Source: an uncultured Alphaproteobacteria bacterium (GTDB lineage Bacteria; Pseudomonadota; Alphaproteobacteria; Rs-D84). From it: a stretch of DNA of 64,000 nucleotides. Below, one piece after another: positions 4,364-52,737 of this stretch (its first letter is position 1; each line of letters opens with the position of its first letter). Under the pieces are notes generated by a model. That model was not told the origin of the DNA and did no database searches. It saw only the letters and a list, made by a program, of their open reading frames with translations. The position numbers were made by a program, and so were the translations under genes. The stretch is from contig CALXXV010000010.1 of NCBI GenBank assembly GCA_944392775.1, positions 12,966-76,965 on the forward strand, in the 5' to 3' direction.

Positions 4364-5345
4364 CTTTAATTAAAAAATCACCGTTACTTTTAAGTTCTTT
4401 GAAATCAACGCCTGAACCTGAAACAATTTTTTCAATACTTGGTAATTCACCGCCTTGGATGGATTGGTTGGCACTATTTATTAAAGCGTTTCTTTCAGCA
4501 TTAAATATTATTTCTCCATCTTGTGTTAGTGCACCATATTTTTCGTCTGTTTTTAATAATCCACGATGGTCATGTTCTTGAAAACTTGTTTCTTTTAATT
4601 TCCCCGCGATAAAAATATTTCCGTAAGGTTCAGCAAAAAAGCTAGGAACGATGTCACCAGAGTTTTCATATAAATATTCAGATAAAGTATTATTTTTATT
4701 GGTCATAGTATCTTCTGCTGAGGCAAAAGACAAAGTAGTAAATTTAAACGAATTCATCGGTGCAATAGGGCTGTGTTGTATGACTAATAAATTTTTTTGT
4801 ATTTTTTGAATTTCAGTTTTTTTATAACCTAAATATAGCATTTTTTCATACATTAAGTTTGACATTTGCCATATTGTAGCGGCACCATGACAGTGTGCAT
4901 AAAATTTTATTAATCTAATTCTTTTTATTGCTTCTTCAATAGTTAGTCTTTTACCTAAAGAATTTGTAATTCTTGGATATAATAATATGTTAAATAGCGT
5001 GTTTACATAATTAGGGGTATTATTTTCTTGTATTTCGATAAGTTTTTGTTGTGCTTTAAGGAACAGCGCATTGCGTTCTGCTTTCGTGTCATGTGTTTTG
5101 AAGCTATAAACTACAGAATAAATACTTATTTTGGTTATATTATTTTCTTTAAATAACGTCTCTAACATTTTCGCATAAGAATTTGCGCGCCTATCAGAAT
5201 TTGTCAGTTCTCCACCAAATGCAACAATCGCAGGTTCGTTAATAGGTATGTTATCAACACGTATGCATCCATGATCTTCTACAGATTCACTAGGAATTCT
5301 TTTTATTAAAAAAGCATCTGTTTTTAAATCATGATCTTTTTTCAT
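4311..5345 (-). CDS. hypothetical protein (344 aa), last gene of the lon-tsaB-rimI operon
   Basis: Long ORF whose start overlaps the rimI stop by 4 nt. No recognisable motifs apart from an HCHGAAT stretch. Confidence 0.5.
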   Translation of the reverse strand: MKKDHDLKTDAFLIKRIPSESVEDHGCIRVDNIPINEPAIVAFGGELTNSDRRANSYAKMLETLFKENNITKISIYSVVYSFKTHDTKAERNALFLKAQQKLIEIQENNTPNYVNTLFNILLYPRITNSLGKRLTIEEAIKRIRLIKFYAHCHGAATIWQMSNLMYEKMLYLGYKKTEIQKIQKNLLVIQHSPIAPMNSFKFTTLSFASAEDTMTNKNNTLSEYLYENSGDIVPSFFAEPYGNIFIAGKLKETSFQEHDHRGLLKTDEKYGALTQDGEIIFNAERNALINSANQSIQGGELPSIEKIVSGSGVDFKELKSNGDFLIKVMQKDLSQQILKPDYQK

Positions 5346-5728
5346 ATTTCTTTCTCCAATAACAATGCATCGATATTATCATAATAATGGGGCCTAATGC
5401 CAATTTGTTTATACCCATTACTTTCATATAGCTTACGCGCTGGGATATTATTTTCTGCAACTTCTAAGAATATTTTTTTCCCACCACGTTTTTTTACATC
5501 GTTTTCAACCAGTATCAACATAGCACTAGCAATACCGGATTTTCTAAATTCAGGACGTACACCAATTGTTATAATTTCTGCTTCATCTGCGACGACACGC
5601 CAAATTATAAAACCATTTTGACTTGCGATAATATCGCACCCAGATTTTTTTAAATCTTCAAAATCTTTTGACGACCATGGCTTGTTTGGAAAACATTCCT
5701 TGTGAAGATTTTCTAATTCTTGATACAT
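5342..5728 (-). CDS. rimI: ribosomal-protein-alanine N-acetyltransferase RimI (GNAT)
   Basis: GNAT motif RKSGIASAMLI, and the conserved position next to tsaB. Confidence 0.75.
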   Translation of the reverse strand: MYQELENLHKECFPNKPWSSKDFEDLKKSGCDIIASQNGFIIWRVVADEAEIITIGVRPEFRKSGIASAMLILVENDVKKRGGKKIFLEVAENNIPARKLYESNGYKQIGIRPHYYDNIDALLLEKEI

Positions 5729-6264
5729 TTAAAATTCTTTTCCGCATAACTGGGTTTTAAATACATTGGTACAGCAGAAGGGATATTACCAGATTGAAGT
5801 TTTTCTTGTACTATTTTTAAAGCAAATCTTAAATTAAAAGGTTTGTGTCCAACTGTTTTTGGCCATTCCATTTGTTTGGTTTCAATTTCTTCTATTCCCA
5901 TAGTACAAGGTTCCAGACCATCCGCTGCGACAAAAAAATCTCCTTTGCCAGAATCTATTGCAACAAATGCATTTGGGGTTTCGGCCAGATAAATTTCAAA
6001 AGCGTTTATAGGTATAACGGGTATATTTAGTCCTACAGAAAGACCTTTCGCATATGCTATTCCTATTCTAATACCAGTAAAGCTTCCCGGGCCTACAATA
6101 ATCCCTATTGCTGATAGATCGGTCCATTTTGTATTGTTTTCTGATAAAAACTTTTCGGTTTCTATGGGTAAGCTCAAAGATTGCTTATCTGTTAAAACGT
6201 GTTTATATTTATCGCCTAATAAAAACTCTAAATTATTACCAGAAGTACTTATTATAAGAATCAT
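5713..6264 (-). CDS. tsaB: tRNA t6A37 biosynthesis protein TsaB (YeaZ)
   Basis: MILIISTSGNN... is a YeaZ/Kae1-fold N-terminus. The gene lies in the rimI-tsaB pair. The start is chosen at the internal Met. Confidence 0.7.
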   Translation of the reverse strand: MILIISTSGNNLEFLLGDKYKHVLTDKQSLSLPIETEKFLSENNTKWTDLSAIGIIVGPGSFTGIRIGIAYAKGLSVGLNIPVIPINAFEIYLAETPNAFVAIDSGKGDFFVAADGLEPCTMGIEEIETKQMEWPKTVGHKPFNLRFALKIVQEKLQSGNIPSAVPMYLKPSYAEKNFKCIKN

Positions 6265-6280
6265 ATTATAAAATCCTGTT

Positions 6281-8038
6281 TTATGCATTTATGCCGAAGC
6301 CTATACGTTTTGATATGGTCGCGGATTTTCTTACTGCTAATAACTCATCTATTTTTTGTGGTGTAAATTCCGTTTTTACATCTTCTCCGTCGTGCTCTAG
6401 CAAAGATCGACGTAAAATAGCAGTTATTTCACGTTGCAATTCGCGTACTCCCTGTTCAGATGTATAATTACGAATTATATGTTTTATTGCCGCATCTTTC
6501 ATTATTATTTTATCAACAGCCCAACCGGTATCTTTGGCAGCGCGCTCTATTAAGTGTTCTTTCGCTATTTGAATTTTTTCTTCTTCGCTATATCCGGGGA
6601 TTTCTATGATTTCCATTCTATCTTTTAATGCGTTTGACATATTTAAACTATTTGCCGTTGCAATAAATAAAACGTTAGATAAATCGAAATCAACTTCTAA
6701 ATAGTGATCACGGAAAGATCTGTTTTGTTCAGGGTCTAATATTTCCAGCAGGGCAGATTCTGGATCTCCGCGCCAATCGCGTCCCATTTTGTCTATTTCG
6801 TCTAATACTATCACTGGATTATTAGACTTGCTTCGTTTAAGAGCATCCATAATTCTGCCGGTCTGGGCACCAATATAAGTTTTTCTGTGACCTCTGAAGT
6901 GAGCCTCATCAGAGATTCCACCAAGAGAAATTCTTTGATATTTTCTACCTAAAGCTTCAGCGATGGACTTGCATAACGAAGTTTTTCCAACACCTGGGGC
7001 CCCGACAAAACATAATATACTGCCTTGATTTTTGCCTGTCTTTTTCATTACAGCAATATGTTCTAATATGCGTTCTTTCACGCCTTGCATTCCAGAATGT
7101 TGCGAGTCTAGTACTTTGCGTGCAGATTTTAGGTCTATAGTTGTTTTGTCATATTTACCCCATGGCATTGATAAAAGTTCGTCTAAATAAGTTTTTAATA
7201 ATCCGCCTTCATTTGACATTGGGGACATTGTTTTCATTCTTTTCCATTCAGATAACGCTTTTTCTTTTGCTTCCGTTGACATTTCGGAACGCTCGATTCT
7301 TTTTCGTACGTTTTCTGTATCCATTTCTTCACTGTCTTCACCCATTTCGCGTTGGATTGCACGCATTTTTTCTTGCAGAATAGCTTCTCGTCTGCCATTC
7401 TCCATTTGTTGGTGTATACGACGGTTTATAGAATCTTCTATTTTAGCTGTCTCTGCCATAAGATTAATTTGTTCTAACAGCAAGACCATTTTTTCGCGCC
7501 ATGAGGTTGCGCTTAAAATTTTTATTGCATCATCAGTATCTATACCGGCAGTTTGTATTACAGAATCGATAAATGCGGGCAATGGATAGTTTTGTATTAT
7601 TGTACGCAGTTTATCTATTTTAAATTTCCTAGCAACCGATAAAATCTGCATATTTTCTGCAACTTTATCACGCAAAGCTAATGTTTGTTCAAAAGCGCTG
7701 TCGTCCAAGATTTCTATTGGTGTAGTTTCTGCCATGAAAATGCCATTTTCCAGACTTATGTCATTTAATTTTACAACATCAGTTGTTTTTATTATGGCGT
7801 GTAAAGCACCATCAGGCATACGTAATACTTGTGCGATGTCACCAATTGTTCCGACATCATATATATCTTCGGGCAAAGTCGGGTATGCCCAACTATGTTG
7901 CGCAGTAATTATTATTTTTTTTTCGGCATTTGCTGCTGCTTCTATGCAAGCAACAGACATTGGATTATCTATATAAACCGGAACTGTTAGCCCCGGATGA
8001 ACTACTAAATCTCTAAAGGGTAAAATATATTGTTTCAT
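6281..8038 (-). CDS. lon: Lon-family ATPase (LonA N domain plus AAA+ module) lacking the C-terminal protease domain
   Basis: LON N-domain is present. Walker A GAPGVGKTS and Walker B VIVLDEIDK are present, as is sensor-2 GVRELQREI. The ORF stops at ...KRIGFGINA, exactly where the S16 peptidase domain normally begins. tsaB follows 16 nt later. Confidence 0.75.
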   Translation of the reverse strand: MKQYILPFRDLVVHPGLTVPVYIDNPMSVACIEAAANAEKKIIITAQHSWAYPTLPEDIYDVGTIGDIAQVLRMPDGALHAIIKTTDVVKLNDISLENGIFMAETTPIEILDDSAFEQTLALRDKVAENMQILSVARKFKIDKLRTIIQNYPLPAFIDSVIQTAGIDTDDAIKILSATSWREKMVLLLEQINLMAETAKIEDSINRRIHQQMENGRREAILQEKMRAIQREMGEDSEEMDTENVRKRIERSEMSTEAKEKALSEWKRMKTMSPMSNEGGLLKTYLDELLSMPWGKYDKTTIDLKSARKVLDSQHSGMQGVKERILEHIAVMKKTGKNQGSILCFVGAPGVGKTSLCKSIAEALGRKYQRISLGGISDEAHFRGHRKTYIGAQTGRIMDALKRSKSNNPVIVLDEIDKMGRDWRGDPESALLEILDPEQNRSFRDHYLEVDFDLSNVLFIATANSLNMSNALKDRMEIIEIPGYSEEEKIQIAKEHLIERAAKDTGWAVDKIIMKDAAIKHIIRNYTSEQGVRELQREITAILRRSLLEHDGEDVKTEFTPQKIDELLAVRKSATISKRIGFGINA

Positions 8039-8081
8039 GGTGAATATAATATAAGTTATTTTTATAATTTTTCAAGAGATA

Positions 8082-8112
8082 TAAAAAAACCCCGATAATT
8101 CGGGGATTTAAA
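8082..8112 (-). terminator. intrinsic terminator
   Basis: Hairpin ccccgaattatcgggg, followed by a T-run on the minus strand. Confidence 0.5.
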
Positions 8113-8128
8113 AAAGTCTTTTATTATT

Positions 8129-8362
8129 TTAACGACGGCGAGAGTTACCGAAACTATTGTATTGTGCATTATTGCTAGAACGTTTTGATAAATAGCGCGC
8201 AGAAATCAAAACAAGCCATTCAATAGATAATAATCCAAGATAAATTAATTTATTTTCTAATCCTGGTACCCAACCTAAAATATAAACTAATTGAGCCACA
8301 AATGAAATATATAATAATCCAAAAATACTTGTAAAGAATACTTTTTTTACTTTTCCAAACAT
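8129..8362 (-). CDS. small membrane protein
   Basis: 77-aa ORF with two hydrophobic helices. Confidence 0.4.
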   Translation of the reverse strand: MFGKVKKVFFTSIFGLLYISFVAQLVYILGWVPGLENKLIYLGLLSIEWLVLISARYLSKRSSNNAQYNSFGNSRRR

Positions 8363-8399
8363 ATTTTACCCTTTTATTAAAACGTTATAAATAAAATGC

Positions 8400-8715
8400 T
8401 GGGTTTCTGTTGCCGGGTACCCAGCGACCCCGCAATAAGCTAAGATGAATATAATCAACAATTGCCAATTATATTCTAAGCCTAATTAGGCAGCCATTGC
8501 AAGGCGAACGTTGTCGTTCGCAGCGATTCTATCGCCATTCAGTTTTTATTTAGCTTTTTACGACGCCACGTCGGATTCAGCCGATTTGCCTTTACTGCGC
8601 CTGTCGAAACTATGTCAGCCCCATATGTTTTATTGGTGGAGCTGTGGGGTACCGCCCCCCAGTCCAAAACGTCTATTTCGCAACGGTTTCAGAATCATCA
8701 TCGTTTATACGACGG
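8400..8715 (-). ncRNA. ssrA: tmRNA (ssrA), circularly permuted two-piece form
   Basis: On the minus strand, a T-arm plus CAGCUCCACCA acceptor 3' end finishes at 8634. It is followed 11 nt later by GGGGCUGACAU..., the tmRNA 5' end, at 8622. GUAAAAAGCUAAAUAAAAA is then followed by the tag reading frame GCG AAC GAC AAC GUU CGC CUU GCA AUG GCU GCC UAA, giving (A)ANDNVRLAMAA. The 5' and 3' boundaries are approximate. Confidence 0.75.
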
Positions 8716-8768
8716 TTTTCATTATATAATATTTGCGGTGGAAATTGCAAGTTTTTAAGTTATAATGA

Positions 8769-12250: not shown

Positions 12251-12375
12251 TTTTTCTGCTTAGTTCTTTGTTCTTTCGGGCGGATGTGACATATCGTAAG
12301 ACTGTCAGAATCGGTTGTCTTAAAAACCGATTGTTTGAACTCCGCCCATCATATAAATTTAAAGGAACTTTGGAC

Positions 12376-13476
12376 ATGGGAAAAATTGATAATTTAATTG
12401 TGGGATGTGGAATTTCTGGGGCATCTTTGGCAAGAATGTTAGCCGATGCAGGTAAAAAGGTTGTAGTTATTGATTCTAAAAATCATATAGCAGGAAATAT
12501 TTTTGATTATTATCAAGACGGTATATGTGTACATAAGTACGGAACACATATATTCCATACATCAAATAAGGAAGTTTGGGATTTTGTAAGCAGGTTTTGT
12601 CAATGGTATCCTTATCAACACAAAGTGCGCGGTTTAATTGATGGGCAAATAGTCCCGATACCATTTAATTTAAATACTTTACATGCTGTTTTCCCAAAGA
12701 GTTTGGCAGATAAGATAGAACAAAAATTACTTGATAATTTTGGGCTGAATGTAAAGGTTCCAATATTGGAATTGCGTAAAAAAGATGACAAAGATTTGCA
12801 GTTCTTGGCGCAATACATTTATGAAAAAGTTTTTTTAGAATACACTTTGAAACAGTGGGGGCAAACGCCTGACGAAATAGACCCATCAGTATCTGGTAGG
12901 GTTCCTGTTTATATTTCTCGTGATGATAGGTATTTCCAAGATAAGTATCAAGGCATTCCAATTGGCGGTTATACAGCAATGATAAAGAAAATGCTAATGC
13001 ATAAAAACATTACTGTAAAACTTAATACTCCATTTAATAAAAACATGAAGTATGACAGATTGTTTTGGACTGGAAGTATAGACGAATTTTTTGATTATAA
13101 ATATGGCGAGTTGCCTTATCGTAGTGAACGCTTTGAGTTTATAACTTTCCCTTATTCAAAGTTTCAAGATGTTGCGGTAGTAAATTATCCTTGTAATTAT
13201 GATTTTACTCGTATCGGAGAATACAAATATTTTTTGAATGATATATCTAATAAAACTATTGTTTCATATGAATATCCAGAAAACTTTCAACGCGGTAAAA
13301 ATGATAGATATTATCCAATAGCTAATTCAGATACTACAGCGCTTTATAACAAGTATATAAAGGAAACAAAAAGAATGACTAATGTCCATTTCTTTGGACG
13401 TTTGGGAGACTATAAATATTACGATATGGATAAAGCCGTAGCTCGTAGTATGGATTTATTTAAAGAGGTAAAATAA
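12376..13476 (+). CDS. glf: UDP-galactopyranose mutase
   Basis: N-terminal FAD Rossmann motif IVGCGISGASLA and Glf-like GNIFDYY...GTHIFHT motifs. The start is set at MGKIDN rather than the upstream ORF extension. Confidence 0.8.
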   Translation: MGKIDNLIVGCGISGASLARMLADAGKKVVVIDSKNHIAGNIFDYYQDGICVHKYGTHIFHTSNKEVWDFVSRFCQWYPYQHKVRGLIDGQIVPIPFNLNTLHAVFPKSLADKIEQKLLDNFGLNVKVPILELRKKDDKDLQFLAQYIYEKVFLEYTLKQWGQTPDEIDPSVSGRVPVYISRDDRYFQDKYQGIPIGGYTAMIKKMLMHKNITVKLNTPFNKNMKYDRLFWTGSIDEFFDYKYGELPYRSERFEFITFPYSKFQDVAVVNYPCNYDFTRIGEYKYFLNDISNKTIVSYEYPENFQRGKNDRYYPIANSDTTALYNKYIKETKRMTNVHFFGRLGDYKYYDMDKAVARSMDLFKEVK

Positions 13477-13477
13477 A

Positions 13478-14560
13478 ATGCCTATATTATCTATTTTAAT
13501 ACCTGTATATAATGTAGAAAAGTATTTAGCGCAATGCTTGGAATCTGTTATAAATCAGACATTGTCAGATATAGAAATAATAGTTATAAACGATGGGTCA
13601 AAAGATAATAGTTTAAATATAATTAAAGATTTTGCTGCAAAAGACAAACGTATTATCGTTATTGATAAAGAAAATGAAGGATATGGTAAGTCTATGAACC
13701 GTGGCTTAGACGTTGCATCAGGTAAGTATATTGGTATCGTAGAATCAGATGATTGGATTGAACCAAATATGTATGAAAAGCTTATATCAACGGCAGAAAA
13801 ATATAAGGCGGATATTGTTAAGGCAAATTTCTTTTCATATACTACTAATAACGGAGAAAAAAATGAGAAGATAAATTTGTTCCCAGAAATTTATTCTGAA
13901 CGCCCTTTTTCGCCACGAGAAAAAACATTTGTATTTTTTTGTCAGCCGTCTATTTGGAGCTCTATTTATAATAGAGAATTTCTAAACAAAAATGATATCA
14001 GATTTTTAGAATCCCCCGGCGCCAGTTATCAAGATATTGGTTTTAGTTTTAAAGTATGGGTTTCTGCAAAAACGGTTGTATTATTAAATGATGCTTTTTT
14101 ACATTATCGATGTGATAATGAAACCGCATCTGTGAAATCTAAAGGTAAGGTTTTCTGCGTCACAGATGAATGGAATGAGATTGAGAAATATTTAAAAGAT
14201 AGAAATAAATTAAATAAAAATTTAGAAAAAATAATCGCACACGTTAAACTTGGTAATTATTTATGGAATTTTAAACGTTTAGATGGCGAAGAGCAAAAAG
14301 CTTTTTTAAAACAATTTCAAAAAGAATATTCAAAATATATATCAGAAAACATACTAGATAAAATTTATTTTGATGATAAATCATGGAATAAATTATTACG
14401 AATAATTTATCCTAAGTCTGTATCAAAAATGATTAGGAAAGCTGTATTTGATTTAGTTCATCCTATTTATAAAACACAAGTAATGGGCAATTATAAGAAA
14501 AAATATTTATTTGGCAAAATAAATATAGGGAATAAAGAAATACCGGCCTTAAAAATATAA
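13478..14560 (+). CDS. family 2 glycosyltransferase
   Basis: GT-A N-terminus ILIPVYNVEKYL...VINDGSKDNS...ESDD. Confidence 0.8.
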   Translation: MPILSILIPVYNVEKYLAQCLESVINQTLSDIEIIVINDGSKDNSLNIIKDFAAKDKRIIVIDKENEGYGKSMNRGLDVASGKYIGIVESDDWIEPNMYEKLISTAEKYKADIVKANFFSYTTNNGEKNEKINLFPEIYSERPFSPREKTFVFFCQPSIWSSIYNREFLNKNDIRFLESPGASYQDIGFSFKVWVSAKTVVLLNDAFLHYRCDNETASVKSKGKVFCVTDEWNEIEKYLKDRNKLNKNLEKIIAHVKLGNYLWNFKRLDGEEQKAFLKQFQKEYSKYISENILDKIYFDDKSWNKLLRIIYPKSVSKMIRKAVFDLVHPIYKTQVMGNYKKKYLFGKINIGNKEIPALKI

Positions 14561-14579
14561 AAGAATAAGGAGTTTTATA

Positions 14580-15719
14580 ATGACAGAAAACCCAAAAGTA
14601 TCAATAGTTGTGCCTATTTATAAAGTTGAAAAATATTTAGAACAATGTATTGATTCTATATTAGCTCAAACTTTGAATGATATAGAAATCATCCTTGTTG
14701 ATGACGGATCTCCTGACAGATGTCCTGAAATTATTGATAAATATGCAAAAAATGATAAACGTATTGTTGCCATACATCAAGAAAATGGTGGTTATGGTGT
14801 GGCTGTAAATCATGGAATTGCTATAGCACGTGGTGAATATATAGGTATCATAGAATCAGATGATTGGATTGAACCTAATATGTATGAAAAACTATACAAA
14901 AAAGCTAAAGAAGATGATTCAGATGTAGTTAAATGTGGCTTCTTTGTTTATGATTCTACAAAGCCTAAAGAAAAACAAAATAAAAAATATAAATATAATC
15001 CAAGGCAAAATATAGAAGCATGGCCAGACAAATGTTTTACTGCGTCTGAATATCCTTTGTGTGTATCAATGCATGCTAGTATTTGGGCCGCTTTATATAA
15101 ATCCGACTTTGTAAAAAACATTAAATTGATAGAAACGAAATCTGCATCGTATCAAGATTTTCCATTTTTAATAGAAACTATGTGTACAGCCAAACGTATA
15201 AGTGTTGTAAAAGAATATTTAGTTCATTGGCGAGTAGAAGCAACAAATAATTCTTCGACAAATAATTTCGGTGAAAAAACTATGGTAATGGCAGATCAAT
15301 GTAAAATATGTTTTGATTTGTTAAATAAGTATGGTTATGCGGAAGCTTTTAAAGAAGAATTTTGGGCACATGCAGCAGACGCAAATTATGGATTTTTTTC
15401 TAAGATAAAATGGCAATATAAAAATATATATTTTGATAAACTACGTGAATTATTCAATAACATAAAAAATTATGATAAATTTCAATATAAATATTTTAAT
15501 AAAACATTAAGTATTTTTGTTAAATGTGTTTTAAATGACGATTTTATTGGGGCTACAAAACGTAGATCTAGATTCTGTTTAGCAAATATTAGGCGCATGT
15601 TTATATCAATTCGTTTCCCTTCTTCTTCGTTTGAAGGTTGGAGAATTCAATTATTAGGAATTCAAATCGGGTCTAATTTAGATTTTTTTATTCCGGCTTT
15701 TTTAAGAATAAGGTTATAA
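14580..15719 (+). CDS. family 2 glycosyltransferase, tandem paralog of 13478..14560
   Basis: Same GT2 motifs. It shares an identical stretch ESDDWIEPNMYEKL with the upstream gene. Confidence 0.8.
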   Translation: MTENPKVSIVVPIYKVEKYLEQCIDSILAQTLNDIEIILVDDGSPDRCPEIIDKYAKNDKRIVAIHQENGGYGVAVNHGIAIARGEYIGIIESDDWIEPNMYEKLYKKAKEDDSDVVKCGFFVYDSTKPKEKQNKKYKYNPRQNIEAWPDKCFTASEYPLCVSMHASIWAALYKSDFVKNIKLIETKSASYQDFPFLIETMCTAKRISVVKEYLVHWRVEATNNSSTNNFGEKTMVMADQCKICFDLLNKYGYAEAFKEEFWAHAADANYGFFSKIKWQYKNIYFDKLRELFNNIKNYDKFQYKYFNKTLSIFVKCVLNDDFIGATKRRSRFCLANIRRMFISIRFPSSSFEGWRIQLLGIQIGSNLDFFIPAFLRIRL

Positions 15720-15720
15720 A

Positions 15721-16623
15721 ATGAAAAAAGATTTACAATCAATAGAATTGTTATTTGGGGCTACATCAAATTTTTTACCTTATGCTGTTGTGACAGCTCT
15801 TTCTGTGATAGAAAATGCCGAAGGCAGGCCGGTAAATATATATTTTTTATATGCTGATATAGTTACTCCTATTTCAGACGAATATAGAAACAATATATTT
15901 GAAATTACAAAAACCTTTTTTAAAGACTTAAATGTAAGAATTTATTTTTATGATGTGTCCGATAAATTATATCTTTTAGAAGGTCAAAATATAGGCATGT
16001 GGGGGAAAGAAGTATCTTTAACACATTACTTTTATTTACTTGCACCGCTATTTTTGCCTAAAAAAGTTGAAAAGGTAATATATTTAGACACAGATATGAT
16101 TGTAAATTGTAATATATCAGATGCATTTAATATAGATATGGAAAATTTTTTAATTGCTATGGGGGCACCACGTGGTTATGAAGAAATGGGGGACGATGTT
16201 TCAAACTCTGGTTTCGTAATGTTAAATTTAAAACAATGGAGAAAAGAAAATACTTTAAGTACGATATTAGAATTTGGTCGTAATTTACCGCGCGGGAGAT
16301 TTTGCGATCAATTTTTATTATATAACTATTTTACTAAAAATAATTCAGAAAGATTGATGTTGTTAGATAAAAATTATAATATTTTTCCTCAGTTATTTAA
16401 TGACATAGACATAAAAGATATAAAAATATTACATTATACAGGATATAATTCTATAAAGCCTTGGAATGATAAAAATTTTGTGCAACGGGGCGGATTTTTA
16501 TGGTGGAAATTTGCACGAAAAACCCCATTTTATGAATCCTTTATATGTTCGTTATTAAAAAAAGAAATTAAAAAACAACATAGACATGGATTTTGGTGGC
16601 ATTTAAAGCATATGAAGTTTTAA
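15721..16623 (+). CDS. family 8 glycosyltransferase (LPS glycosyltransferase-like)
   Basis: GT8-like layout with YLDTDMIV (DxD) and a C-terminal HYTG... region. Confidence 0.6.
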   Translation: MKKDLQSIELLFGATSNFLPYAVVTALSVIENAEGRPVNIYFLYADIVTPISDEYRNNIFEITKTFFKDLNVRIYFYDVSDKLYLLEGQNIGMWGKEVSLTHYFYLLAPLFLPKKVEKVIYLDTDMIVNCNISDAFNIDMENFLIAMGAPRGYEEMGDDVSNSGFVMLNLKQWRKENTLSTILEFGRNLPRGRFCDQFLLYNYFTKNNSERLMLLDKNYNIFPQLFNDIDIKDIKILHYTGYNSIKPWNDKNFVQRGGFLWWKFARKTPFYESFICSLLKKEIKKQHRHGFWWHLKHMKF

Positions 16624-16650
16624 TAAATAAATGTAAATCGGAGTTTAACT

Positions 16651-17847
16651 ATGATAAATTATTTAATAACAGGAGGTGGTTTCGCTAATAAGGGGGCGGA
16701 GTCTATGTTATATACATTGATTTCTGAGCTAAAGGCAAAAAGTGATTGCAATATAATAGTGCAGGTTGTACATGGATTTGAGTTTGTAGATCATGATGTA
16801 AAAGGAATTTCTTTTATACCTCTTTCTTATAAAGAAAGAAAAAAAATATTAAATCCAGTAATTCATACATATAATATGATTGTTTACGGATTGAATAAAG
16901 TTTTAGGATTAAATAAAAAAAAGAACTTGTTATTATATAAAGCAATTCGCAAATCAGATGTTGTGATAGATATTTCTGGATATTCTTTATCTTCTCAATG
17001 GGATCCAAAAGCTGCAAATCATATTCCTCAGACAATAGAATTGGCTAAAAAATATAATAAAAAAGTTATATTATTGCCACAGTCTTTTGGACCTTTAGAA
17101 TTCCCGAAAAAATACAATTTAAGTAAAAAATATTTAAAACGAATTTTAAGTTATCCAGAGGCAATATTTTGTCGAGAGCAAGATGGCTATAACTGTATGA
17201 AAGCCCTTGGACTTTCAAATGTTTTTAAGTCTCATGACATAGTTATTCAAAGTACAAAATCTATAAACTTCAGGCTTACTAAAAAACAGACATCACAAAA
17301 AATAGTAATAAAAGAACACAGCGTTCTGATTGTTCCTAATATAAGAGTTTTTGAAAGAACAAATAAAAATGAAATTTTAAAGTTATACGAACAAACAATA
17401 AATTTTTTATTAAAAAATAATTATAACGTTTATTTAACATATTATGATTTATCAGATTTTAGTATTTGCAAAGAAATAAAAAATATTTTTGAAAATGAAC
17501 CAAAAGTCGTATTTATAGAGAATAATCTTAATTGTATAGATTTTGATAATTTGTTGCTTAAATTTGATTTTATTATATCTTCTAGGTTTCATTCTATAGT
17601 ACATGCTTACAAGCATGGTATACCTGCTGTGGTTATTGGTTGGGCAATAAAATATAAAGAATTATTAGAATCTGTAAATCAACAAAGTATGTTGTATGAT
17701 GGACGAATAGAAATTTCACAAAAAGATTTTTTAAATTCAATAAAATATTTAATAAAAAATAGAAAAAAAGAGTCCAATATAATAAAAGAAAATGTAAAAA
17801 AAATACAGAAAAAAAACTGTTTCGATAAAATGTGGGAGTTTATTTAA
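16651..17847 (+). CDS. polysaccharide pyruvyl transferase family protein
   Basis: CsaB/WcaK-like organisation with a GGGFANKGAESML N-terminus. It is paired with an FrhB-like gene, as in pyruvylated polysaccharide loci. Confidence 0.55.
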   Translation: MINYLITGGGFANKGAESMLYTLISELKAKSDCNIIVQVVHGFEFVDHDVKGISFIPLSYKERKKILNPVIHTYNMIVYGLNKVLGLNKKKNLLLYKAIRKSDVVIDISGYSLSSQWDPKAANHIPQTIELAKKYNKKVILLPQSFGPLEFPKKYNLSKKYLKRILSYPEAIFCREQDGYNCMKALGLSNVFKSHDIVIQSTKSINFRLTKKQTSQKIVIKEHSVLIVPNIRVFERTNKNEILKLYEQTINFLLKNNYNVYLTYYDLSDFSICKEIKNIFENEPKVVFIENNLNCIDFDNLLLKFDFIISSRFHSIVHAYKHGIPAVVIGWAIKYKELLESVNQQSMLYDGRIEISQKDFLNSIKYLIKNRKKESNIIKENVKKIQKKNCFDKMWEFI

Positions 17848-17851
17848 TATT

Positions 17852-19117
17852 ATGAATATAGAAAAAGTTAGAAAAAATAATTTATGTATTCAATGTGGCA
17901 TATGTAATGCAGTTTGCCCATTAAAATGTATTTCAATAAAAAAAATAAAGAATGATTATTTGCCTTTTATAGATAAAAGAAAATGCGTTAAATGTGGAAT
18001 ATGTTATCAAATTTGCTCTTTTTCAGAATTGAAAGAATATGATTTTTCAAAAGATATCGAAGATTTTATATTAGGAAATTATTTGTCTATTTATAAAGCT
18101 CAGTCTAAAGACAATTTAATTTTAAATAATTCTACTAGTGGAGGGGTCGCAACAACTTTAATAAAAACATTACTTTCAAACAAAGAATATGATTGTGCTT
18201 TTGTGGTTGACGGTTATGAATATGAAACGCAGTTAAAAACGAAAAAGATCGATATAAATTCTGATTTATTAAATTCTCAAAAATCTAGATATTTAACCGT
18301 TTCTCATTGTGATGCAGTAAAATATATAAAAGAAAATCCGAAGCAAAGAGTTATAATAATAGGAACAGGATGTATAATAACGTCTTTTTTAAAGGTGATA
18401 AATTTTTTAAATTTGAATAAAGATAATTATTTATTTATCGGTCTTTTTTGTGACAAGACTATGAATTATGGGGTGTGCGAATATTTTAAACAACACAAAG
18501 TTTCTAAAGGTAAAAAACTAAAAAAACTTTTTTTTAGATCCAAAGAAATTAGTGGATGGCCGGGGAATGTAAAATTAGAATATTCTGATGGGGCTTGCGA
18601 ATTTTTAGATAGAACTGAAAGAATGAGAATTAAAGATTATTTTGTACCAGAAAAATGTTTGTATTGTTTAAATAAATTAAATAGAAATGCAGATATCGCT
18701 TTAGGAGATAATTATATTGACTCTAATGAAGACAAAAAAGGTATAAGTAGTGTAATAATAAGAACCGATTTAGGTAAACGTATATGGGAAATGTGTAAAG
18801 ATAAATTCATTTTTGATGTTGATAAAGTAGACTCTTTCATTAAATCGCAACATTTAGAAACAAAAAGAATAAATGTAGCTTTTGCAAGTATAAAAGGTCT
18901 ATTAAACGGTAAATTTACTAAAAACGATAAAAAGCTTTATACAAAAGCACTAAAAAAGATAAAGATAGGTCAAAAGAAAAATGTTTATAATGCAATTAAT
19001 GGTAGAAATTTAATAAAAAGCCTTTTTCATAATATTTTTTCTATAGATAGAGAAAACGTATCCGGAAAAGATATTAAAGTTATAACGATATTATGGATAA
19101 AGATAAAACTTTCTTAG
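17852..19117 (+). CDS. coenzyme F420 hydrogenase/dehydrogenase beta subunit-like 4Fe-4S protein
   Basis: Two ferredoxin-type CxxCxxC.CP motifs at the N-terminus (CIQCGICNAVCP, CVKCGICYQIC), followed by an FrhB-like domain. Confidence 0.55.
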   Translation: MNIEKVRKNNLCIQCGICNAVCPLKCISIKKIKNDYLPFIDKRKCVKCGICYQICSFSELKEYDFSKDIEDFILGNYLSIYKAQSKDNLILNNSTSGGVATTLIKTLLSNKEYDCAFVVDGYEYETQLKTKKIDINSDLLNSQKSRYLTVSHCDAVKYIKENPKQRVIIIGTGCIITSFLKVINFLNLNKDNYLFIGLFCDKTMNYGVCEYFKQHKVSKGKKLKKLFFRSKEISGWPGNVKLEYSDGACEFLDRTERMRIKDYFVPEKCLYCLNKLNRNADIALGDNYIDSNEDKKGISSVIIRTDLGKRIWEMCKDKFIFDVDKVDSFIKSQHLETKRINVAFASIKGLLNGKFTKNDKKLYTKALKKIKIGQKKNVYNAINGRNLIKSLFHNIFSIDRENVSGKDIKVITILWIKIKLS

Positions 19118-26273: not shown

Positions 26274-28016
26274 ATGTTATTTGGGAAAAAATCGGGAATT
26301 AAAAATCGTAATCGCGAACGTTACGAAAGAATTAGACGTTTAATGTGGATAAAATGCGAAGCATGTGGTCGACTTGTTTATTATAAAGATTATAAAGCAA
26401 ACCATTATATTTGTCCTAGATGCGGGCGTGCTTTTATAATGACTCCAAAGCAACGATTTGATTTGTTGTTTGATAATAATGAATGGACAAAAATCAAATT
26501 GCCGACAGTTTCTGATGATCCGTTAAATTTTGTTGACCGAATTTCTTATAAAGATCGTTTGGCAGAGGCTAGATCTGAAACCGGTTATAAAGACGCTATT
26601 ACAACTGCAGACGGTGTAATAGGCGGAATACCGGCAACAATTTGCGTCTTAAATGGTGATTTTATGCTAGGATCTATGGGGCGCGCTGCTGGTGACGGTA
26701 TTGTATCCAGCATGGAACATGCCATAGATTTAAAACAACCTTTTATAATGGTTACGTGCAGCGGGGGCGCACGTATGCAAGAAAATATATTATCTCTTAT
26801 GCAGATGGCAAGAACAACCGTTGCTGTAAATAAGTTGCACGCAAATGGCATTCCCTATATCGTATTGCTTACAGATCCTACTTTTGGAGGTGTAACGGCT
26901 TCGTTTGCTATGCTTGGGGATATTCATATAGCAGAAAAGGGCGCTAGAATTGGTTTTGCAGGCAGGAGAGTAATTGAACAAAATATACGAGAAAAATTAC
27001 CTTCTAATTTTCAAACTGCAGATTATTTATATGAACACGGAATGGTAGATCTAGTAGTGCCAAGAAATGAGCTAAAGGATAAATTAGAAAAAATACTAGC
27101 AGTTCTAACCAAACGAAAAAAAGAACCTAAAAGTATAAATGTTTCTACACCTGTTTCAGATAGCAAAAAAGTTCGTGGAATGGGAGAAAATGAAGCATAT
27201 GACAAAGTGCTTTTGGCACGTAATGAAAATAGACCACATTTCTTAGATTACGTAAACGGTATTGTTGATGACTGGACGTACCTAGCCGGGGATAGAGTAT
27301 ACGGTGAAGACCCTGCTATGTGTGGCGGAATCGGTTTTTGGCGTGGTATACCAGCCGTAATCATAGGCCAAGAAAAAGGTCGAACAATAGAAACGCGTCA
27401 ATTTCATCGATTTGGTATGCCAAATCCAGAGGGATATCGTAAAGCCCAAAGGCTAATGCGATTAGCAGAAAAATTTAAATTACCTTTGATATCATTATTT
27501 GATACGGCAGGTGCTTTTGCGGGTAGTGCTGCAGAAGAAAGGGGGCAATCACAAGCCATTGCCGCAACAATTGCGACTGGGTTAGATATAAAAACACCTT
27601 ATGTTGCAGTAAATGTCGGAGAAGGAGGCAGCGGAGGGGCTATTGCGGTCGGTACGGGTGATAGAGTTTTAATGTTAGAAAATGCTATTTATTCAGTTAT
27701 TGCCCCAGAATCTTGTGCAAGTATTTTATGGAAAGATAATAAATACAAGGCCGTCGCCGCATCGGCAATGAAACTTACAGCGAAAGACATGGCTAATTTT
27801 AACATAGTAGATCAGATTATTGATGAACCAGCAGGTGGAGCACATACAGATTGGCAAACAACGATGGAATTGCTTGCAAGCGCTGTTGCAAATCAAATAG
27901 AAGATTTACAGAAATTACCAGCCGAAGAAATGGCGCAGCATCGTGCAGAAAAGTTTATAGCTATGACGCGTGATGTAGAAATATATCAGCCAGAGCATAA
28001 AACAGAAGAACATTGA
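26274..28016 (+). CDS. accDA: acetyl-CoA carboxylase carboxyltransferase, fused beta-alpha (AccD-AccA) polypeptide
   Basis: The N-terminal half has the AccD zinc ribbon CEACGR...CPRCGR and the carboxyltransferase beta fold. The C-terminal half has AccA motifs FGMPNPEGYRKAQRLMRLAE, AEERGQSQAIA, GEGGSGGAIA and SVIAPESCASILWKD. It is a single 580-aa ORF. Confidence 0.8.
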   Translation: MLFGKKSGIKNRNRERYERIRRLMWIKCEACGRLVYYKDYKANHYICPRCGRAFIMTPKQRFDLLFDNNEWTKIKLPTVSDDPLNFVDRISYKDRLAEARSETGYKDAITTADGVIGGIPATICVLNGDFMLGSMGRAAGDGIVSSMEHAIDLKQPFIMVTCSGGARMQENILSLMQMARTTVAVNKLHANGIPYIVLLTDPTFGGVTASFAMLGDIHIAEKGARIGFAGRRVIEQNIREKLPSNFQTADYLYEHGMVDLVVPRNELKDKLEKILAVLTKRKKEPKSINVSTPVSDSKKVRGMGENEAYDKVLLARNENRPHFLDYVNGIVDDWTYLAGDRVYGEDPAMCGGIGFWRGIPAVIIGQEKGRTIETRQFHRFGMPNPEGYRKAQRLMRLAEKFKLPLISLFDTAGAFAGSAAEERGQSQAIAATIATGLDIKTPYVAVNVGEGGSGGAIAVGTGDRVLMLENAIYSVIAPESCASILWKDNKYKAVAASAMKLTAKDMANFNIVDQIIDEPAGGAHTDWQTTMELLASAVANQIEDLQKLPAEEMAQHRAEKFIAMTRDVEIYQPEHKTEEH

Positions 28017-52708: not shown

Positions 52709-52737
52709 ATATAGTGAATACTAAAAAAGATTTCAAG
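52709..52737 (-). promoter_or_regulatory. candidate sigma-32 (RpoH) heat-shock promoter for dnaK
   Basis: The minus strand reads CTTGAAA, then a 14-nt spacer, then CACTATAT, which resembles CTTGAAA-N13-15-CCCCATnT. It lies about 35 nt upstream of the dnaK start. Confidence 0.35.

Follow-up and report, generated by a model that had tools for sequence, protein, structure and literature searches.

A Lon ATPase without its peptidase domain in the alphaproteobacterial lineage Enterousia, and an invariant IGF tail that may dock on a separate peptidase

Introduction

Lon is the textbook case of an unfoldase and a peptidase fused in one chain, and ClpXP and HslUV are the textbook two-component machines. 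In a stretch of 64,000 nucleotides from an uncultured alphaproteobacterium (contig CALXXV010000010.1, positions 12,966 to 76,965; the whole stretch is called the window below), the lon gene encodes a protein of 585 amino acids (aa) that has the substrate-binding and ATPase parts of Lon and no S16 peptidase domain. What can such a protein do, and if it still serves proteolysis, with which peptidase? An earlier note on this DNA, made from the letters, had offered two readings, a retained protease-less Lon ATPase or a deletion of the 3' part of lon. Enterousia ('Candidatus Enterousia'), the name under which this lineage is discussed here, belongs to the order Rs-D84, where genomes are mostly <1 Mb (PMC12306168). 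A search of the literature gave no natural protease-less Lon, and these proteins go unnamed in the database sources.

Results

An intact Lon ATPase without the peptidase domain

The gene, here called lon-deltaP, and its parts are as follows.
6281..8038, (-) strand: lon-deltaP, a LonA without the S16 peptidase domain, 585 aa (open reading frame list, domain content, AlphaFold2 model)
7466..8026, (-) strand: LON N-terminal substrate-binding domain (LON_substr_bdg), aa 5-191 (PF02190, E 2.9e-21)
6605..7015, (-) strand: AAA+ ATPase core, aa 342-478 (PF00004, E 2.9e-22)
6395..6532, (-) strand: Lon lid (small alpha) domain (Lon_lid), aa 503-548, with sensor-2 R532 (PF22667, E 6.8e-13)
6281..6283, (-) strand: stop codon TAA of lon, fixed in position in 80 genomes

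The N domain, Walker A and B motifs, arginine finger and sensor-2 that the earlier note had read in the protein were all recovered by Pfam and by alignment to E. coli Lon. The AAA+ core carries the Walker A motif GAPGVGKT, pore-loop residue Y388, Walker B residues D413/E414, sensor-1 N463 and arginine finger R474. In the residue alignment K352, D413/E414, Y388, N463, R474 and R532 correspond to K362, D423/E424, Y398, N473, R484 and R542 of E. coli Lon, and these ATPase and pore residues are invariant in an alignment of 80 Lon sequences. The top match among solved structures was E. coli LonA (6U5Z), of which residues 13-556 of 784 are covered at ~40% identity. An AlphaFold2 model of the monomer, with a mean predicted local distance difference test (pLDDT) score of 85.4, resembles LonA structures, and its AAA+ part superimposes on PDB 6n2i with a TM score of 0.93 and a root-mean-square deviation of 1.7 Å.

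Comparison with family profiles gave the same assignment and the same gap. The best families are Lon families, but the match to TIGR00763 ('endopeptidase La') covers only positions 2-567 of the 795 in the profile. Both TIGR00763 (544.6 bits, cutoff 608.05) and NF008053 (465 bits, cutoff 891) stay below their curated cutoffs for the whole protein. The match to ClpA (E 3.6e-12) reaches 45 bits where the cutoff is 993 and reflects no more than general AAA similarity, and no Clp/Hsp100-type AAA+ domain was found in the protein. LonB and LonC lack the N domain of LonA and have a peptidase domain; LonB has a membrane insertion in its AAA+ module and LonC a degenerate ATPase. The protein of the window is of neither kind, since it has the LonA N domain, intact ATPase motifs and no peptidase domain.

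The C-terminus reads ...AVRKSATISKRIGFGINA and is followed by the TAA stop. Lon_C (PF05362) had no Pfam match in lon-deltaP. When the peptidase domain of E. coli Lon (aa 560-784) served as a tblastn query, the window of 64 kb gave nothing (best E 0.5), and among some 90 related loci (~1 Mb) the domain was detected only in the two full-length controls, L085 and L093. No remnant of the domain was seen by tblastn downstream of lon in any truncated locus fetched, nor was a separate adjacent protease-domain gene, which the note had named as a possible outcome, found in the window or the related loci. In the absence of the S16 Ser-Lys peptidase domain (~200 aa), lon-deltaP cannot be a protease by itself. 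The note had placed the end of lon exactly at the start of the protease domain; the absence of the domain stands, whereas the end is not exact, because a few residues of the first beta-strand of the peptidase are kept.

The searches also bear on a split Lon, in which another gene elsewhere in the genome would supply the S16 domain, or a second lon of full length would be present, and its product would reassociate with lon-deltaP or replace it. Room for this is left by the extent of what is visible, namely ~64 kb of a genome of roughly 0.9 Mb together with the lon and tig neighbourhoods of relatives. However, similarity to Lon_C appeared only in the two controls, and a full-length sister gene in the same gene order (see below) points to deletion, not to fission with an adjacent gene. 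We consider a split Lon quite improbable.

The truncated gene is conserved and under purifying selection

A scan of one genome per species with lon returned relatives in 235 genomes, and all figures for 80 loci refer to the best 80 of these. They are titled uncultured Alphaproteobacteria or proteobacteria, or 'Candidatus Enterousia', and one is a complete chromosome of 958,618 bp; the loci fetched include one from the complete genome OZ007020.1. Apart from two partial or interrupted copies, the 80 genomes carry a protease-less Lon of 584-587 aa with a common end point. The identical protein occurs on 8 contigs from independent samples and assemblers, each time followed by tsaB and then rimI. 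The stop codon itself is TAA in 48 of the 80 genomes, TGA in 22 and TAG in 10, and such variation at a fixed position indicates that the truncation is old.

The median pairwise ratio of nonsynonymous to synonymous substitution rates (dN/dS) of lon-deltaP is 0.067. By segment it is 0.13 for aa 1-200 (N domain), 0.044 for aa 301-548 (AAA+) and 0.14 for the tail. It can be seen from these values, over 80 species, that a protease-less Lon ATPase is indeed retained, as the note had proposed in one of its readings. An assembly error, with a full-length protease domain hidden behind it, is ruled out by the identical frame in 8 assemblies and the single truncation point in 80 genomes.

One observation could be held in favour of an artefact or a decaying pseudogene: in one metagenome-assembled genome of the 80 (L053), lon is interrupted at the sensor-2 motif by an in-frame stop (GVR-stop-IQRE, ~7597-7599), after which the frame is intact through KKIGFGVRL-stop. 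Either the sequence is in error here or a nonsense mutation arose very recently. Against decay or artefact stand the 8 contigs, the shared truncation point with its differing stop codons, the low dN/dS and a conserved promoter (see below), so that this explanation is already refuted and its probability negligible. We are highly confident that lon-deltaP is a functional protease-less Lon.

As a separate matter, two lon-region copies (L025 and L026) lie on one 24 kb contig, JAIDWS010000009.1, and are 99.7% identical over 5.3 kb; they represent either a recent duplication or an assembly artefact.

The gene descends from the housekeeping lon

The two genes downstream of lon give the frame for its descent.
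5713..6264, (-) strand: tsaB (TsaD-family Pfam hit), immediately downstream of lon
5342..5728, (-) strand: rimI-like acetyltransferase gene, completing the lon-tsaB-rimI order shared with the sister that has a full-length Lon

The likely start of tsaB is the ATG at 6264; from another ATG further upstream, at 6288, the gene would run into lon. With the former start, the note's remark that tsaB begins 16 nucleotides (nt) downstream and leaves no room for a peptidase domain stands. In an exhaustive nearest-neighbour search of 1.8 billion representative proteins, the three nearest neighbours of lon-deltaP were two protease-less proteins, P0121 (593 aa, 52% identity) and P0122 (580 aa, 51%), and one full-length LonA, P0125 (769 aa, 49%). 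The gene of P0125 sits in lon-tsaB-rimI, in the order of the window, and that of P0122 likewise has tsaB after lon. In a neighbour-joining tree the protease-less Lons form a clade to which P0125 is sister. A full-length Lon in the same lon-tsaB-rimI order in the sister lineage indicates that lon-deltaP is the housekeeping lon with its 3' part deleted. About 600 bp at the 3' end were thus removed cleanly in an ancestor of the clade. The deletion that the note had considered thereby finds its support in the shared synteny, and the two readings it had set as alternatives are compatible, both of them being supported.

Among the nearest cluster representatives, P0209 (577 aa), from a very AT-rich organism, ends just past the lid (…KKKELVLILKILNNI) and has no IGF-type tail of the sort described next. 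This motif is thus not universal among truncated Lons, and P0209 may be a decaying copy.

The C-terminal tail carries an invariant IGF motif

What follows the lid is a short tail.
6284..6394, (-) strand: C-terminal tail, aa 549-585, remnant of the lid-to-peptidase linker and start of peptidase beta-strand 1 (by alignment to full-length Lons)
6293..6310, (-) strand: IGF motif K577-R578-I579-G580-F581-G582, with two basic residues preceding IGF

The tail departs the lid on the face of the ring that normally holds the peptidase. Past the lid, the AlphaFold2 model has a short strand and a helix, and then the last 15 residues (571-585) at pLDDT <50, which predicts disorder. Within this segment I579, G580 and F581 are 100% identical in 79 distinct Enterousia sequences, in which K577 is conserved at 94%, position 578 is always K or R, G582 is conserved at 90%, and the neighbours at 46-84%. 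The codons of IGF vary synonymously (ATT, ATC and ATA; all four GGN; TTT and TTC), and this turnover indicates constraint at the level of the protein. The motif is kept across ~50% divergence, in P0121, which ends GRKIGFRTTSVRI, and P0122, which ends GKKIGFSERF, while what follows it changes in both length and sequence.

The full-length sister reads ...DFGKPADKDVVGIVNGLAYSETGG at the position of the tail, and full-length sisters read VGI and PGV at that of the motif. Alignment with the full-length sister indicates that the linker and first peptidase strand together gave rise to the tail, and that its IGF stands where VGI once stood. In 225 full-length Lons this xGx ends in V 172 times, in L 14 times, in I 13 times and otherwise in some other residue, but not once in Phe (0/225). 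A different placement given by MAFFT, of RIGFGINA against the internal peptidase segment 'FGINSD', was judged spurious, as other species read GFGVRA.

Clp ATPases bind the hydrophobic pockets (H-pockets) of ClpP through flexible loops with a (L/I/V)-G-(F/L) tripeptide, commonly IGF, VGF or IGL (PMC8745299). The tripeptide is needed for association with ClpP, and grafting of the ClpA loop that bears it sufficed to turn ClpB and Hsp104 into BAP and HAP, which degrade proteins with the help of ClpP (PMC5540906). E. coli ClpX reads GSGIGFGATVKA (ETGSGIGFGATVKAK), locally GSGIGFGA, and ClpA reads ERKSIGLIH (ETERKSIGLIHQDNS); the protein of the window reads SKRIGFGVRA. Such a tripeptide on a flexible, exposed element is thus present in lon-deltaP, as the invariant IGF in a segment with pLDDT <50.

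An independent case in Bacteroidales

A second, unrelated group of truncated Lons was found. P0190 (615 aa) is 38% identical to the protein of the window and groups with Bacteroidales Lons. It shares a small clade without the protease domain with P0271-P0274 (626-627 aa, Lon_C absent); the closest kin of this clade are full-length Bacteroidales Lons of ~799 aa, Muribaculaceae included, at 49-57% identity. The C-termini of the clade read ...RRVFGHVGFSVRAQ, ...RRTFGRVGFSAQTF, ...GRVGFSAPVR, ...GRVGFSASAR and ...GRVGFSTPAH, and a full-length sister reads ...EGNEFPGVVTGLAWTQAGG; all truncated members thus have G-[RH]-V-G-F-S with 4 residues after it. The truncated lon lies in the order tig-(DUF4405)-orf-DUF179-lon and the full-length sister in tig-orf-DUF179-lon, and this shared synteny indicates orthologous replacement. 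As for the two small open reading frames between tig and the Bacteroidales lon, a degenerate ClpP was considered and rejected: one codes for a membrane protein of the DUF4405 family, and nothing matched the other.

Two lineages have thus truncated Lon inside the same strand, and both have fixed basic-[I/V]-G-F-[G/S] with 4-7 free residues after it. Since the number of residues after the motif is not constant (4-7), an internal tripeptide hook is a better fit than a tail of the HslU or proteasome type, anchored by its terminal carboxylate.

A conserved motif in a disordered tail argues for some binding partner, and this need not be ClpP. The tail might dock on HslV, FtsH or an unrecognised peptidase, or on a non-proteolytic adaptor or DNA; the pair of basic residues ahead of IGF might bind an acidic surface or nucleic acid, and no ClpP gene was seen in the sampled loci. 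On the other hand, the motif is an exact match to the ClpP-binding consensus in both clades, and the extreme C-terminal residues vary in sequence and number, unlike those of HslU or proteasomal docking. A partner other than ClpP is therefore held to be unlikely.

A probable heat-shock type promoter precedes lon

Upstream of lon the following elements were recognised.
8049..8076, (-) strand: RpoH (sigma-32)-type promoter, CTTGAA-N15-CTTATAT, with 10 nt between its end and the lon ATG
8395..8754, (-) strand: two-piece (permuted) alphaproteobacterial transfer-messenger RNA (tmRNA), upstream of lon (Rfam RF01849, 159 bits)

The promoter agrees with the RpoH1 consensus of S. meliloti, CTTGAA-N15-16-CCTATAT (PMC4843759). 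The strict pattern occurs at constant distance in 38/80 loci, against a background of 0.003 per 150 nt, and elsewhere essentially not at all (1.9 Mb, both strands counted). The -35 element is CTTGAA in nearly all 80 loci (CTTGCA in L073), and the -10 element is [CA]TTATAT in all but a few. In the window dnaK has a similar RpoH-type promoter, CTTGAA-N16-ACTATAT (52709-52737, (-) strand), and then a normal GGAG ribosome-binding site. From the sequence pattern, the promoter of lon is probably of the RpoH type and regulated by heat shock.

The -10 element of lon ends 10-11 nt before the ATG (8039-8076, (-) strand) with no Shine-Dalgarno sequence, and this spacing is constant in all 80 species. With the -10 element so near the ATG and no Shine-Dalgarno sequence, the lon mRNA may be nearly leaderless. 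Between the tmRNA gene and lon are a hydrophobic open reading frame of 77 aa (8129-8362) and a terminator-like hairpin (~8083-8106).

The permuted tmRNA was called by Rfam, and ARAGORN made no call on it. Its tag, read from the sequence, is ANDNVRLAMAA, nearly invariant in 66 related loci. An Ala-Ala end is the usual end recognised by ClpX, and here it is at best a weakly informative clue to ClpX.

Other features of the window and its relatives

Several further features lie apart from lon. On the (-) strand, 1-2770 is seemingly free of open reading frames and of higher G+C content (GC, 43%); it holds the end of a giant gene that continues beyond the edge of the window. Elsewhere this gene measures >2189 aa (L086, 6502-13028) and 3647 aa (L095, 12489-21308), with weak Flg_new repeats; a gene of ~11 kb is remarkable for a genome of roughly 0.9 Mb. 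Putative glycosyltransferase, pyruvyl-transferase and UDP-galactopyranose-mutase genes, recognised by eye only, occupy 12268-19117 on the (+) strand, and GC is 0.26-0.28 at 14-18 kb against ~0.35 elsewhere; this region may be a horizontally acquired surface-polysaccharide locus. At 26274-28016, (+) strand, a 580-aa open reading frame appears, again by eye only, to be a fusion of AccD (beta) and AccA (alpha), the carboxyltransferase subunits of acetyl-CoA carboxylase.

Discussion

A Lon unfoldase that may feed a separate peptidase

Taking the results as a whole, the explanation that we consider best, with a probability of roughly 0.42, is that lon-deltaP is a truncated housekeeping Lon unfoldase which hands its substrates to a separate peptidase, most likely ClpP. 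The steps may be pictured as follows. A clean 3' deletion in an ancestor of the clade stripped the S16 domain from the housekeeping lonA of 'Ca. Enterousia', a gut alphaproteobacterium with a reduced genome. That the remainder is a heat-shock-regulated, ATP-driven hexameric unfoldase and translocase, taking its substrates through the Lon N domain, is strongly supported. The tail, made of the old linker and the first peptidase strand, would then have become a hook for docking, of the form basic-[I/V]-G-F. By this hook the Lon ATPase ring might be seated on a separate peptidase, likeliest in those pockets of ClpP that take the IGF and IGL loops of ClpX and ClpA, and the substrates selected by Lon would then be degraded by ClpP.

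The docking of the tail on ClpP, argued by analogy with the Clp loops, is put forward tentatively. It is with the same reserve that we suggest a natural hybrid AAA+ protease, a Lon motor on ClpP, which would have no fewer than two origins in gut lineages (one in Rs-D84, in the Alphaproteobacteria, the other in Bacteroidales) and might have replaced ClpX as the partner of ClpP in Enterousia.

Several observations weigh against this explanation. By tblastn, neither clpP nor clpX was found in the window or in ~100 fetched loci (~1.2 Mb, mostly redundant and a fraction of the genome), where the E. coli ClpP and ClpX queries gave only generic AAA matches to lon itself. The trigger factor gene tig usually precedes clpP-clpX, and tig-clpP-clpX is a common cluster. 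In the Enterousia loci examined, tig stands in rplM-rpsI-tig followed by variable genes, and clpP is never next to it; tig without a following clpP suggests that ClpXP may be relocated or lost. Furthermore, the hook of the known ClpP partners is on an internal loop of a Clp-type AAA+ protein, whereas here it is on the C-terminal tail of a Lon-type one. The Bacteroidales clade consists of five metagenome-derived sequences. Lastly, the ancestral strand was already hydrophobic-Gly-hydrophobic, so that only 1-2 substitutions were needed, and the argument from convergence is weakened to that extent.

Some side results on proteolysis in this lineage may be added. An AAA-like match in L073 proved to be shikimate kinase. 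A multi-copy gene family able to sample more of the genome was looked for, and none exists. The genomic paper on Enterousia has nothing on proteases (PMC12306168). Near tig in Enterousia, a GcrA homologue and a pair of response-regulator and histidine-kinase genes were seen (L099-L101; genes at ~18.5-20.1 kb and ~5.1-7.1 kb). ClpXP and Lon control such regulators of the cell cycle in Caulobacter. Their retention makes the state of proteolysis in Enterousia of added interest.

The main rival to docking on a peptidase is that lon-deltaP is a stand-alone ATP-dependent chaperone or unfoldase, which remodels or holds misfolded proteins. The IGF motif would then act within the Lon hexamer, where it might fill the surface once covered by the peptidase ring, stabilise the hexamer or gate the exit pore. 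Consistent with this, selection has conserved the N domain together with every ATPase and pore residue, a heat-shock promoter like that of dnaK is retained, no ClpP appears in the sampled sequence, and the anti-aggregation activity of LONP1 needs ATP hydrolysis and not proteolysis (PMC8368198). However, the AlphaFold2 model, which is of a monomer, has no confident intramolecular docking of the tail (residues 571-585, pLDDT <50), and the rival leaves unexplained why two unrelated lineages arrived at [I/V]-G-F where Phe is absent in full-length Lons. A chaperone role fits all the data except this convergence on IGF and VGF, and we regard it as a real possibility that we nevertheless doubt.

That a Lon without its peptidase is strictly conserved shows that the ATPase does something essential apart from the proteolysis of its own chain. 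Should the tail indeed dock on ClpP, this would be the first natural Lon-family motor to drive a Clp-family peptidase, and AAA+ proteases could swap partners by truncation and 1-2 substitutions. The annotation of proteolysis in genomes would then have to be reread, as it is easy to label such genes wrongly as 'Lon protease' or to set them aside as fragments.

Comparison with known systems

Like canonical LonA (E. coli Lon), lon-deltaP has the N domain, the long helix, the AAA+ module, the lid and a heat-shock promoter. Unlike it, lon-deltaP is without the S16 domain, falls below the family cutoff and carries a derived IGF tail that none of the 225 full-length Lons has. Human LONP1 and yeast Pim1 offer a parallel in that the Lon ATPase module acts on misfolded proteins without proteolysis (PMC8368198); they differ in still carrying the peptidase domain.

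As regards the use of a separate peptidase ring, two kinds of machine can be compared. HslU and the proteasomal ATPases (PAN, Mpa and Rpt) dock on their peptidases by their extreme C-terminal residues. The proposed arrangement of lon-deltaP is like theirs in that a C-terminal tail of an AAA+ ring engages a separate peptidase ring, and unlike theirs in that 4-7 variable residues follow the tripeptide in the truncated Lons. With ClpX, ClpA and ClpC, and with the engineered BAP and HAP, lon-deltaP shares a (L/I/V)-G-(F/L) tripeptide on a flexible element at the peptidase-side face of the ring, a likeness known here from sequence; it differs from ClpX, ClpA and ClpC in its Lon-type AAA+ module and in bearing the hook on a C-terminal tail. 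What is new here beyond the note is the invariant IGF tail, the parallel case in Bacteroidales and the heat-shock promoter retained by a truncated gene, and if the docking proves true, lon-deltaP would be the natural counterpart of the BAP and HAP chimeras.

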